A stretch of 64,000 nucleotides of DNA from NCBI GenBank assembly GCA_951406725.2, contig OX597817.1, positions 134,168,001 through 134,232,000 of the forward strand. The letters run 5' to 3'. The translations under genes were made by a program, and so were the position numbers. Positions within the stretch are counted from its first letter, which is position 1. The number at the start of each line of letters is the position of its first letter. Of the stretch, positions 6,700 through 56,769 are shown in pieces. The notes under the pieces are model-generated. The model was not told the DNA's origin and ran no database searches. It saw only the letters and a program-made list of their open reading frames with translations. The stretch comes from Octopus vulgaris (lineage: Eukaryota).

Positions 6700-7160
6700 C
6701 TCACACACACAATACCTCCACAGGTACAATCCCCCATCGAACAACTCTTCCACACTTGACACTCACTGAGCACACAAGCGCTCACACACACACACACACA
6801 CACACAGAGCCTCCTCACGTCACAAATGCTTACACACCACCTACACACATTCTCGCAAGAACGCACATACACACACCCAGGCAAGCACACTCTCACATAC
6901 ACAATAACCGAAATGACCCTCACATCGCACAACGCAACACTCACAACACAGCATCACACAATACACACAACCGAAACCTATATACTCAAACATGCAACAC
7001 ACACACAAGACCGTACTCAGACTCAAACGAGTTCACAAATGTACGCTTCACCTCTCCTTTTTCATTCCCCACCCTTTCTTCTAACTCTTTTCCCTCACTG
7101 TCGCTCACGTATCCTTCTTTCTCCATCACTACCCCTCCTTATTCTCTCCTCCACACACTC
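6700..7160. repeat. Degenerate CA-rich then CT-rich low-complexity tract
   Basis: Seen directly; explains the overlapping 98-153 aa ORFs. Confidence 0.8.
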
Positions 7161-8089
7161 TTTCCTATACATAAACGAGACCGAATAAGAGATGCTGCTC
7201 ATCAAGATGTGTATTAAACAACACAAAATAATACATTCTCTTGGTTTATTGAAATTTTGTTCATCTGAAGTAAGATGACGACCGCTGTAAACAAAACGGT
7301 GTGTCCACAGTTCCTCTTTCCAGTCAATCAGTGCGTTTTCCTTCATGGCATTTCAGTTTCTAAGAAAATTCTTTATTCCCCATGTTATCTCCTCTTCTCA
7401 TTTACAGTTGATTGCAATTAATATAAGGCGCGAAAATACTTTTGATAACCAAGAAATTAACTTGAATATTATTAGATATACTTTTATAATATTATTGGAT
7501 ATGTATATACTTGAAAGCAAACTAATATAAATTAAGAAACAACCCGTAAAAGGGAATAAAAATCTATGTTAGAGAACATATTTTAACAAGAATTATTTTA
7601 ATATGAAGACACATTAGAGTGAGTGCTCAATAACAATGAAAAAATACCAAGCTTGGAGCTATCAATTAGCTGTAATAGAGAGAGAGGGGGGAAAACCACA
7701 TTTAATGGAAAAGGAATGAAATATCTACCGTCCTTTTACTCAATTTTGTAAATTCGTTGCTGATTGTTTTCCCGCTTCTACTAATTAACAGCTGCAAGCT
7801 TTAGATTTTTCCATTTGTGCTGAGCATCCTCACTAATTTGTTTTGCTTAATAAAATAATTCTTTGTATAACTGCGAACGATGTGTACTTAGATTTTATGT
7901 AATATATACACAGCGTCAATATATACCAGACAATCAAATACATACACCTACACGTGGACTGTGAATGCTCACACAATAAGAGGACGGTGGTAAAATCACT
8001 TCTCAGAAAAACGTTTCTATTCTCGTCCACAATCACAATCGGTGCATTAGGAGAAAGAAAAAGTAATCCTTAATCGAGGTTTAATTTTT

Positions 8090-8445
8090 ATTCTTTCACT
8101 TGTCTCAGTTATTAAACTGCAGCCATTCCGGGTCATCGCTTTGAAGAATTCTTAGGCGAATGAATCGACCCCCGTACCGATGTGTTTTAAAGCCTGGTAC
8201 TTATTATATCAGTCTCTTTTGCTAAAACCGCTAAGTTACAGGGTCGTAAACACACCAGCACCACTTGTCAAGTGGGTATGGGGGTACAAACACAGAGACA
8301 GATATATACGACGGGCTTCTTTCATTTTCCATCTACCAAACACATTCATGGGACTTTGGTCGGACCGAGGTTATAGTAGAAGACACTTGGCCAGATGCGA
8401 TGCAGTGAACCCGGAACCATGTACTATACAACCACGCCTGCGTCT
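8090..8445 (-). mobile_element. tRNA-derived SINE family B (OK-like, internal microsatellite)
   Basis: Reverse complement of the near-intact copy at 47437. Confidence 0.85.
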
Positions 8446-8559
8446 ATTGGTTGCTTTATTCCAACAGTCGAGTAGACTGAGCTTTAGCAGAAAACAGTTG
8501 AAAATACAACGAATATATGAGAAAATACATTCGATAAAACGCACGAATCCAATGCAGCA

Positions 8560-8730
8560 AAATCTTACGAACTGTTAATCATAACCCGATAATATATTAC
8601 GAATACACCAAAACCTTTTTATCAGCAACGTAACTCCTCAAACATGTCAACCCAGGAACAAACGAAGACCAATGTAATCTATGAATTTAACTGCAAACTT
8701 TAAAAGTTGCAAACTTCAGGACTCTAACTT
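8560..8730 (+). mobile_element. Penelope-like element remnant (start of GIY-YIG region)
   Basis: Translates QTKTNVIYEFNCK, similar to the PLE NVIYxxxC motif; stops present. Confidence 0.4.
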
Positions 8731-8734
8731 CTAC

Positions 8735-9137
8735 ATTATCTTTTACTTGCTTTAGTCATTAGACTGCAGTCATGCAGGCGCACCACCTTGAAGCATTTTT
8801 AGTCGAACGAATCGATTCTGTGTACGTTTTGTGTTTTAAGCCTGGTATTTATTCCATCGGCCTCTTTTGCCGAACGACTTTGTTATGGGGACTGGTTGTC
8901 AACGTTAAAACATATTTCAAAGGCTTTAAAAGTTTAGAAGTGCACTAGTGGAAGGGGGCATACACTGACGCAAAGATACACACACATATAAAGGCCTTCT
9001 TTCAGTTTACGGCTTCCAAATCCACTGACAAGGGTTTGGTCGGCCCGGGGTTATAGTAGAAGGTGCCACGCAGTCGGACTTAGCTCGAAGTAATGTGGTT
9101 GAGAAGCAAATTTCTTACCACAAAGCCACGCCTACAC
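8735..9137 (-). mobile_element. SINE family B
   Basis: Tail (TTTTACTTGCTTTAGTCATTAGACTGCAGTCATG) through head (TTCTTACCACAAAGCCACGCC). Confidence 0.85.
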
Positions 9138-9798
9138 CAACATTTGATACACTTGCAAAGCCTTGACGGATTAACTGTTTTGCCGGACCACATGGTCAGG
9201 CAATAATAGTTCACCAACAGACCCCTAACCTACTAATTATGGACCTGCCATGCGTCTAAAGTACTGTGAACTGTTCGAAACTTAACAGAAAATTGGATCT
9301 GTGATTACACTTGACAGTATCACTTAGCGTAGTAGCCATAGCTAAGGGCAACTTTGAACGAAATAAGCAGAGTCCCACATGATTTTAGTATCACCACTAA
9401 CAAGCTCGGGGTAAATGATGCATATAAATACAGCGTCACCCGTGGTCGCTCATTCAACTACACTGGCAGTCAATGGAATTTCAAATTTCTGTAAACTTTA
9501 CAGATTAAGGGGTATGCAGGCCGGTGTGCCGGAAATAGGTTGCTATGTATACTATATGTGATCAAGATAACTCACTCTTAGAATCAGCTTTTGTGTGGCT
9601 TCAGGGACGTTTAGCTCTGAGGTTCTGCTGTGGTTCTGGAAGATAGTATAATGGGCTTAACTTCTGACGCCTATGACATCCATAAACAAAGAGTTTAGCA
9701 GCGAATACAGAAGATTTAGTCTCCGAATAAAACAAGTCAGTTAAAACTCAAATGAGACAGGGGGATGTGTGGGACTCGGAGAAGTTACTCTGCGAAGT

Positions 9799-54410: not shown

Positions 54411-55513
54411 TGATTAATAGAAGCAGCGATACAGAGAACACCACGGCGATAAATAGGAGACGATCATTATGGATATGGCCACGACGGTAGTAGTAGTAGT
54501 AGTTAATCTCCATGTACGTTGACTGCGGGTGGAGAGATTGTACAAGTAGGGTGTATCATATTCATCAGAGAGGGGAACGATTAAGAGAAAATGTAAATAA
54601 GACACAGAAAATAACGAAACAAACCATTCGAGTAAAAATAACAACAAGGGTTGTTTGGCAAAACTTCTATCATGGCCGATGCTCATCAAAATACTTTAAA
54701 CTAAGCATTGCAATATAATAAAACACACGTCATTTAATTAGAGTGATATATTGCTCCCTCTGCCTACAACCCTGGAGCATTTTGCTGTGTTCTATATACG
54801 TATAACTAAGTGCAGCAGATCGTTGTGTGATGTCTTGAGTACGGATGAAGTGCCTGAAGATGTTGCAGCTTAAAAATCACCGATTTGTTCACTGGAAACT
54901 CTTCCGTCCCATCAGTGCTATTCATTGTTCTTGCGTAAGAAAAATGCAAGGTTTTTTTTCCACTCAGAAATCGAAAGCCAGTTCACATATAATCCCCAGG
55001 AGACTATTCGAGTCTAATCTTTTCTCCAAAAATAAATGACGTACAAAGTTATTTCAAACCCGACAAAAGACCAACTATTTTAGCTTTGGACAAGTATAAT
55101 CAATCGGAAATCGATTTCATTAATTACCAATTACTAGTCTTATCGATCTCATTAGAAAAAAACTAAGACATTTTCTTCTACATTAGAGAAAAGCGCTCCA
55201 TATTTCAGGGAAGACTTAGATGAGACGAAAGTTTCATTTTTGTTTTGAATACATTTGGGAAGGGATGAATGACTCAAATTGTACCAAGTGAACGTCGGTT
55301 TCACGCTGTAGGTTCGTCTTCCTCGTATTTAGCTCAGGATAAACCCAAGAATTAATTCATTATAACCTAATGTATGGCTATAAGAACACGAATCGTTAAA
55401 GAAAATGTATAACGAATTGAGCTAATATTGGGGTACTAGATTTTATATCCAACAGGATATATTTGAATAAATAAATGCTACTGTTCTATATCTGAAAGAT
55501 GTGGAATTATGTA

Positions 55514-55978
55514 CATTATTTACATTTAACGGATATTTGTCCTCATCTTGTTTGTTGTTTGTCACAACGTTTCGCCTGATATATCCTCCAACCTTAATCA
55601 GATGTCTTGGGGAAATTTCGAACATGGGTTCTCATTCCTAAGGTATTTTTCGATGTTATTATTATTATTCAGATCACTGCCTAGAATCGAACTTGGAATC
55701 TTGGGGTTACTAGCCCGCGCTCTTAACCACTATGCCCACGGGTATATGGCGTAGTGGTTAAGAGCGCGGGCTACTAATTCCAAGATTCCGAGGTCGATTC
55801 TAGATAGTGACCTGAATAATAATAATATTAATAACAACATCGAAAAATACCTTAGGAATGAGAACCCAGGTTCGAAATTTCCCCGAGACACCTGATGAAG
55901 GCTGGAGAATATATCAGCCGAAACGTTGTGATAACAACAAACAAGATGAAGACAACTATCCATCAAATGCAAATAATG
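55514..55978. mobile_element. Head-to-head palindromic element; each arm is a tRNA-like Pol III head plus hammerhead motif
   Basis: Arms 55514-55736 (-) and 55748-55978 (+) are inverted copies with an 11-bp spacer; A box GGCRTAGTGG, B box GKTCGATTC; candidate 9-bp TSD AATGCTACT at 55474-55482 and 55975-55983. Confidence 0.88.
55887..55932 (+). ncRNA. Minimal hammerhead ribozyme motif (dimer-dependent type)
   Basis: GACAC, CTGATGA (55892-55898), A, stem II GGCTG/CAGCC, GAAAC-GTT (palindromic AACGTT), GTG. The left-arm copy (~55561-55606, minus) has a mutated core CTGATTA. Confidence 0.7.
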
Positions 55979-56769
55979 CTACTATGGTTTATTTGAGCTA
56001 ATCACGGTAGCATTTATTCCATTCCACTGCCTCAATATAGAATCCAATATTCTGAAGTATTGAATCGGTGACTTTAGACATTGAAATTTGGAATTATCAT
56101 AGCTCTTTGATATTACAGTATGTCTGTTGCGTTTATCAATTCGCTTTGAAAGATTCCTGATGTGAAGTCGTGTGTTGAAACAGATATTGTTGTATTTTGG
56201 GAAGGTAAATTTATTTATCTGTATTTTTGGTTTTGTTCTTTTGTCAAATAAACTAACGCACTATATATTTTTCTTCACTCGTGTATTACTAGTCTTATTT
56301 ATTTTATGTCCATTGTCCTGAAGGACCAAATGGAGTAAGTGGAGCAAGAACACAGACGGAAACGAAAAGTGTTGCTGAAGAGGTCACAGATGTGTGACGA
56401 ATGATGTCCGGGCAATGGACATAAAATAAAGAAGACCAGTAATAAACGAGTGAAGAAAAATATACAGTGCGTGTGTTTATTTAGCAAAAAAAAAAATAAA
56501 ATGACCATCCCGAAATAAAAATAATACAGTATATTTGATTTATCGTGACATACAGTAGCTGATGTTTCTTACCAACAGGTAACTGCTAGCCAAGTACGGA
56601 TCAGTAATAAAAGATACTCCAGCCGTGACCATTCGCTATATTTTGCAAAGATTTGTGATTGAAATATTCCTTTATTTTCAAAACAGCAAAATTTGCTGGA
56701 GAGAGATTTTGATAGAAATTCTAGCGATTGAATGACGGGGTGGAATCGTCTTTGGTTCCAAATAGATTG

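Follow-up and report, generated by a model that had tools for sequence, protein, structure and literature searches.

The window, a 64,000-nucleotide stretch of Octopus vulgaris DNA, carries a single insertion in which two pseudo-LTRs are joined head to head. They come from a Penelope/Poseidon retrotransposon that is abundant and by now decayed; we regard this structural part of our reading as practically certain. As sequence comparison shows, the repeat of this insertion begins with a tRNA-derived head. We consider it likely, at a probability of about 0.6, that this head was an RNA polymerase III (Pol III) promoter in the source element, with transcription starting at the head. The palindrome, the ribozyme, and the tail are textbook Penelope features, and the tRNA-type promoter sequence is the unusual part. 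The insertion consists of the following features (window positions; TSD, target-site duplication; RT, reverse transcriptase):

55474..55482, plus strand: left TSD copy, AATGCTACT, 9 bp; the left arm's outer end takes in its final 4 nt
55479..55737, minus strand: left pseudo-LTR, long form, extending to family position 274, with a 7-nt deletion in the A-box region of the head
55479..55513, minus strand: one-sided Penelope tail of the left arm, ~35 nt; in full-length copies it is coding and continues into the RT ORF
55561..55606, minus strand: left minimal hammerhead, decayed, with a CTGATTA core, a broken stem II, and an intact GTT cleavage triplet
55684..55692, minus strand: left B box, GTTCGATTC, consensus and identical to the family majority
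55730..55747, no strand: central palindrome TGCCC-AC-GGG.., where the two heads meet
55740..55815, plus strand: right tRNA-Arg-like head, with the A box TGGCGTAGTGG at 55747-55757, the loop CTACTAA at 55771-55777, and the B box at 55792-55800
55740..55978, plus strand: right pseudo-LTR, short form, ending at family position ~239
55816..55837, plus strand: (AAT)n linker, whose length differs from copy to copy and into which nested insertions have occurred
55858..55977, plus strand: start of the RT-endonuclease ORF (40 codons, MRTQVRNF...), which overlaps the hammerhead
55887..55932, plus strand: right minimal type I hammerhead, core intact, with an additional A following A9; cleavage is predicted 3' of 55927, and stem I has lost one pair at 55931
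55975..55983, plus strand: right TSD copy, AATGCTACT, 9 bp; the end of the right arm takes in its initial 4 nt

The inverted arms, tRNA-like heads, hammerhead cores, and 9-bp flanking repeat of the original prediction are all found where it placed them. The two heads, however, are separated by 2 nt (AC, 55738-55739) and not by the 11 bp initially given, since the family head starts at 55740. The arms are inverted, as described, but they are not of equal extent: the left one runs to 55479 and has the tail, which is absent from the right arm. Complementarity between the arms is 89-91% in ungapped blocks, and their identity is 84.5% over 478 columns; they differ from the family majority at 14 and 13 of 200 sites (6-7% each). 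The A and B boxes recognized earlier are present, but in the window copy the right B box has one mismatch (55793, a position that also differs in cDNA reads) and the left A box lacks 7 nt. The right hammerhead core is intact and is assembled from GACAC (55887-55891), CTGATGA (55892-55898) followed by the extra A, stem II GGCTG/CAGCC (55900-55904/55915-55919), and GAAACGTT (55920-55927). The left core reads CTGATTA (55601-55595), also as first reported, and its stem II is broken too. The motif TGCCC-AC-GGGCA is native to the autonomous element, where it lies just 3' of the ORF. The genome searched comprised 2.8 Gb in 227 contigs, and no empty site was seen, the window flanks having no match among the retrieved loci.

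Two other inverted repeats were observed near the insertion. A 15-nt inverted repeat in the flanks (55470-55484 / 56004-56018), which includes the TSD and has no match among the retrieved loci, looks as if the target had been in a small hairpin or the flank had been copied during repair. A second, unrelated inverted repeat lies 250 bp downstream (56232-56496; 90-nt arms, 87%); it has a decayed hammerhead at 56375 (CTGAAGA, 6-bp stem II), matches L059, L256, L007, and other loci, and is probably another Penelope-type end repeat.

By similarity and architecture, which also provide its clade assignment, the arm is the pseudo-LTR of a ~2.6-kb Penelope/Poseidon retroelement. When loci were collected by the endonuclease-coding stretch, 28 of 30 continued into the arm, and the other two contain the opening bases of the head and then break off in an (AAT)n tract. 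Endonuclease-like coding sequence lies immediately 5' of the head in L112 and L123. The original prediction had proposed aligning the tail to autonomous Penelope-like elements (PLEs), and in three near-complete units (L186, L200, and L210) the hammerhead and tail do run in frame into the RT N-terminus. This in-frame overlap argues against the ORF-linked copies being independent SINE insertions at one site. The order of the unit is head, (AAT)n, ATG, hammerhead in the N-terminal frame, tail, RT, C-terminal endonuclease-like domain, stop, ~30 nt, and the next head; in the window, the start codon is at 55858 and the head is ~120 nt upstream of it. An intact relative of 847 aa, P0019, has the same hammerhead-coded peptide at its N-terminus. 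Copy L272 aligns to P0019 over residues 41-844 and also to the full-length Anolis protein P0065, and all 30 best own-genome matches to P0065 are members of the window's family. The Pfam RVT_1 model matches the RT of L155 (E 1.8e-8). The C-terminal domain contains the motif VY..PC.CG..YKGET and is homologous to the C-termini of P0019 and P0065; based on this motif and homology, we refer to it as a putative GIY-YIG-type endonuclease. The Pfam model PF01541 (GIY-YIG) had no match to this domain here or in P0019 and P0065, and some homologues carry it. The CX2-5CxxC linker between RT and endonuclease, which according to PMC8557442 marks Neptune/Nematis PLEs, is absent from the translations of family copies. 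The ORF copies listed are all partial or broken by stops or frameshifts, and no relative of the family was found in the viral contigs searched.

An abundant family with 781-aa ORFs that match the Pfam GIY-YIG model was considered as a partner and rejected because the tail is not common to it; it was used as a control afterwards. It is a young PLE family with an intact RT/GIY-YIG ORF and a cysteine linker (Neptune-like; L131 606-4287, L132 1044-4306), an upstream ORF of 330-360 aa, and repeats that are direct in L131 (456 bp, 99%) and inverted in L134 (766 bp, 100%).

Head-to-head arms were found in 16 of the 30 best matches, 18 of the 30 position-ordered hammerhead matches, 3 of 6 random insertions, and 1 of 2 incidental ones. 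The palindrome, initially taken to be the element, is thus a common insertion product. In 33 of 38 head-to-head pairs one arm ends at 262-274 and the other at 232-253, and no pair has two long arms. An exact TSD of 8-15 bp (80% A+T) flanks 21 of the 38 pairs, and the same search gave a repeat of at least 8 nt at none of 300 random boundaries, so the 9-bp TSD claimed for the window holds up. Among 30 other insertions a TSD was scored in only one, with a narrow search window that misses short fold-back ends. Most insertions are end repeats alone; roughly half take the form of inverted pairs in which one arm has the long 3' end and the other the short one, with a TSD of 8-15 bp. The one-sided tail, the head-to-head pairs, the short TSDs, and the ORF linkage all agree with the proposed use of Penelope machinery. 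The single TSD around both arms bears out insertion as one unit.

Two insertions that met by chance, or one copy that was afterwards duplicated in inverted orientation, would fit two arms that differ at ~15% of columns and a 15-nt flank inversion nearby, and the former had been put forward in case other copies proved to be single-arm. About half of the unselected insertions are head-to-head, however, one TSD encloses both window arms, and the long/short pattern recurs from pair to pair; each arm is also 6-7% away from the majority, so the difference between the arms fits their age. We consider this explanation extremely improbable.

Returning to two pseudo-LTRs inserted together, rare variants (CpG and polymorphic columns left out) are common to both arms of a pair at 0.53 per 100 sites in 37 pairs versus 0.13 in random arms. 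This excess of ~3-4x fits a shared template, but it does not distinguish double priming from fold-back copying or from gene conversion at a later time. The window's long arm comes after a reversed spacer, and therefore simple fold-back of the short arm cannot give it. Among the first 100 of 673 junction matches, counted by eye, 58 were native and 42 fold-back. An AC versus GT spacer was rejected as proof of short-copy replication because the opening of a hairpin intermediate yields both. Microhomology between target and primer was rejected as a rule: the overlap of TSD and arm end is 4+4 nt in the window and variable elsewhere.

Two reports describe the inverted pseudo-LTR, the optional tail, and the junction palindrome for PLEs (PMC3846280, PMC8557442), and a third describes for Anolis PAc the cutting and extension of both strands, reverse transcription from two internal sites, and insertion for which ribozyme cleavage is unnecessary (PMC11167929). 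By analogy, we infer the same double-strand priming in this family. The element's protein would cut both target strands, as Penelope biochemistry suggests, and each cut strand would prime reverse transcription of an RNA that had not been cleaved, from two sites within this template (~241-247 and ~272-274); the self-complementary 5' end is where the two cDNA products would then join. If transcription began near -7, the 3' end of the resulting cDNA would be self-complementary, and this would explain the junction palindromes.

The family fold is that of a minimal type I hammerhead, the form set out in PMC4209133, with core, stems I and II, and a palindromic stem III in the right arm and the family majority; both fit the minimal hammerhead with an AACGTT palindrome that had been described. 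The core is complete at every base in 117 of the 191 arms scored, which had been enriched by motif search. The mobile RNA, however, is not defined by self-cleavage, as had been thought: copies run 50-85 nt beyond the cut, only 2 of 289 arms start there (no excess over neighbouring positions), and none ends at 186-191. We rejected ribozyme-defined unit ends on these counts. As hardly any arm starts and none ends at the cut, the inserted copies came from uncleaved RNA. In the predicted dimer, the active fold is at -20.7 kcal/mol versus -29.2 for the best fold, and this gap of 8.5 kcal/mol makes the active dimer fold unfavoured without help. Read-through RNA of the window copy is predicted to form a 220-pair hairpin, and the right core could in principle cut the left transcript in trans. 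Rfam reported no hammerhead or tRNA in the window insertion. The hammerhead is the ordinary Penelope one and probably not needed for insertion.

A first look at the genome yielded 2522 candidate arms; exact strings of the 44-nt hammerhead and the 33-nt head occur 925 and 618 times, respectively, and the reversed controls 0 times. Insertions were present in 6 of 40 arbitrary 10-kb tiles, which corresponds to ~42,000 genome-wide (Poisson range ~15,000-90,000). The arms are 5-7% diverged from the family majority, and the burst is therefore old. The stretch is also present in sequencing runs with five different organism labels, and no RNA run is listed among them.

ORF sequence is carried by only 3 of 30 hammerhead-selected insertions and by none of 6 random ones. 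This would be expected of an independent, non-autonomous Pol III SINE or retrozyme that has its own master genes, is processed by a dimeric hammerhead, and is mobilized by Penelope, close to what was originally proposed. The many intact cores (in the partly motif-selected set given above) point the same way, as does the reversed 2-nt spacer before a full arm in L012 and L025, since short copies could be templates. However, a comparison of 46 ORF-linked with 51 solo arms revealed six columns that differ at P<0.01, mostly deletions in ORF-linked copies, and none was fixed; a separate short subfamily was rejected for want of a fixed diagnostic difference. The head, the linker, and the hammerhead are all within the autonomous unit, and no ends fall at the cut site. 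Of 68 insertions listed, most are single or head-to-head arms, and head-to-tail arrays of the short unit did not stand out, a few loci having an extra direct fragment (L105, L110, L393). The tail lies within 900 nt of the head in 112 of 122 heads, several of the other 10 running into microsatellites or other repeats, and no free SINE with this head was seen among the 122. Thus, we find a separate SINE improbable and take the arm to be the end repeat of an ORF-bearing Penelope/Poseidon element.

Several other features were recorded in these searches. Other repeats, several of which end in (AAT)n themselves, frequently break up the (AAT)n linker, so that the head is split from the tail (L114, L120, L121, L124, L129). 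Twenty arms, many of them ORF-linked, start at family position 227, at a variable 9-nt repeat near the short 3' end; these starts, seen near 1461 in L216, L224, L225, L228, L230, and L235, may be due to insertions of the element into its own repeat, or to the alignment. Opposed hammerhead-like motifs of other families occur in random tiles (L071 3805-3815, L085 3732-3757, L093 9769-9786, L132 5332-5754), which means that several hammerhead-bearing families coexist in the genome. A different tRNA-like head, ~70% similar to that of this family (L137 4894-4947), possibly belongs to a related SINE.

Of 30 tRNA loci, which sample part of the isotypes, a genomic tRNA-Arg(TCG) gave the best alignment to the head (z 9.2 versus shuffles), with identity at 17 of 21 positions in the boxes and 29 of 52 outside them. 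ARAGORN reported no tRNA at the window heads. The family-majority A box TGGCGTAGTGG and B box GTTCGATTC fit the Pol III consensus. On the other hand, conserved boxes are expected of any tRNA-derived piece, which counts against the promoter reading. When 30 copies were taken in position order with the head as the only criterion, 25 ceased to match the native upstream sequence within -9 to +7, one at -14, and four at -34 or beyond; this measure is ungapped, and gaps can shorten it, as in L409. The 5' boundary of sharing sits at the Pol III start distance from the A box, which counts against a passive head. Two ORF-linked copies (L212, L220) start at the head and have an unrelated flank upstream, and most of the 30 ORF-start loci are truncated inside the repeat. 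A head with A and B boxes beside a hammerhead was found in none of 80 homologous loci, many of them on short contigs; the one A+B match (L305) is in the flank.

Pol III termination bears on the same question. On the sense strand, every T4 site is limited to at most 9% of the 315 fragments compared (183 kb, with a median cover of 58 and a minimum of 13), and the natural copy L272 has zero T4 in 2634 nt. By synonymous-codon shuffling, an ORF is expected to have 3.5 T4 runs under the codon use of the family and 3.9 under that of the control family; P is ~0.03 for a T4-free master, in a post hoc test on one lineage. Of the 80 homologous loci retrieved, a set exclusive of the nearest relatives (60-73% protein identity), 64 have 1200 coding nt or more; in these 64, 453 T4 were observed versus 427 expected, and the two with zero T4 are both shorter, with fewer than 2 expected. 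Neptune-type ORFs of the same genome have 8-9 T4 runs. We regard the depletion as moderate evidence that would support Pol III transcription.

Three cDNA runs, all unstranded, contained 7158-9456 family reads per 11.5-12.9 million records, and 80% of these reads continue into unrelated sequence. Transcripts ending at the cut, as suggested previously, were not apparent: no pile-up of read starts or ends was seen on the window element in these runs. Loose read ends are at 55479/55483 and 55512/55513, the tail borders of the left arm, and L272 has two small pile-ups, neither at the head. Read depth falls off along the unit, which is the pattern that truncated copies lying within host transcripts should give. 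Because the reads are unstranded and embedded in other sequence, they speak neither for nor against Pol III use.

The same pseudo-LTR pair could also be explained with the tRNA head as a passive captured fragment, Pol II transcription from the pseudo-LTR, and a boundary that is a start site or a short hairpin. D. virilis Penelope has a LINE-like internal promoter (PMC2377424), and Adineta pseudo-LTRs have 5' palindromes with no tRNA reported (PMC3846280). The Adineta palindromes are found with TATA/Inr, and thus the 5' boundary marks a start or stop site, not which polymerase is used. The frequent fold-back junctions at the palindrome (the 42 counted by eye) are in line with a passive head, as is the lack of a visible Pol III transcript in the unstranded cDNA reads. 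Yet both boxes are at consensus, whereas the head has otherwise drifted and yields no cloverleaf call, and the whole unit has no shared T4 runs, unlike 62 of the 64 homologues. We therefore treat a passive head as a serious alternative, but an unlikely one.

If Pol III does start at the head, RNAs would begin ~7 nt upstream of it. The upstream repeat would give a full-length RNA, as the sense strand has no T4 terminator, and every downstream repeat would give a short RNA, copied in trans. We put forward only tentatively, and at less than even odds, the full scenario in which the entire ~2.6-kb coding RNA was made by Pol III from a captured tRNA promoter, the ORF was kept T4-free, and the end repeat doubled as a built-in SINE that outnumbers ORF copies several-fold. 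Pol III promoters are a mark of non-coding SINEs, and to our knowledge autonomous retroelements use Pol II promoters or Pol I co-transcription. We found no description of a tRNA-headed Penelope element in the literature covered, which lay outside most subscription papers, Repbase, and Dfam; the available text of the octopus repeat annotation (PMC13282606; its Zenodo library lies outside this scope) makes no mention of this element.

Like Penelope/Poseidon PLEs (Anolis PAc, PMC11167929; Adineta Pen2a, PMC3846280; D. virilis Penelope, PMC2377424), the window's family has a single ORF of ~800 aa with RT and a C-terminal endonuclease-like domain, a pseudo-LTR whose minimal hammerhead overlaps the first codons, inverted pseudo-LTR pairs with a junction palindrome, a one-sided tail of ~30 nt, a short TSD, and an uncleaved RNA template. 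Unlike in those elements, its pseudo-LTR opens with a tRNA-derived A/B-box head and (AAT)n, and there are no shared T4 runs. Its putative ribozyme resembles the minimal type I hammerheads of metazoan PLEs (PMC4209133; PMC6765202) in having no loop III, a palindromic ACGT, a short stem I, and predicted dimer-only activity, but differs in the extra A after A9 and the GUU triplet. A Pol III-type promoter followed by a hammerhead is also seen in Schistosoma Sm-alpha/Sj-alpha (PMC6765202); those, however, are non-coding tandem repeats cut into monomers, whereas here promoter and ribozyme are in a coding retrotransposon whose ends ignore the cut. Animal non-LTR retrozymes (PMC7229834; bioRxiv 10.64898/2026.07.22.740005) are likewise short hammerhead-bearing sequences related to PLE pseudo-LTRs, but they form head-to-tail arrays and circular monomers, while the arms described here are single or head-to-head and contiguous with their own ORF.

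Like tRNA-derived SINEs, the family has a tRNA head containing an A box and a B box, numerous short copies that begin at this head, and TSDs. It differs from them in that no separate short lineage was detected, the tail is where the ORF of the partner itself begins, and the mode of insertion is that of Penelope. Tens of thousands of SINE-looking insertions in this genome belong to a Penelope family. If the Pol III reading is true, its coding sequence would be constrained by Pol III termination, and translation would pose a puzzle, the RNA being uncapped and carrying a ribozyme 70 nt after the start codon. It would also offer a direct route for the origin of a SINE from the end repeat of its partner element.
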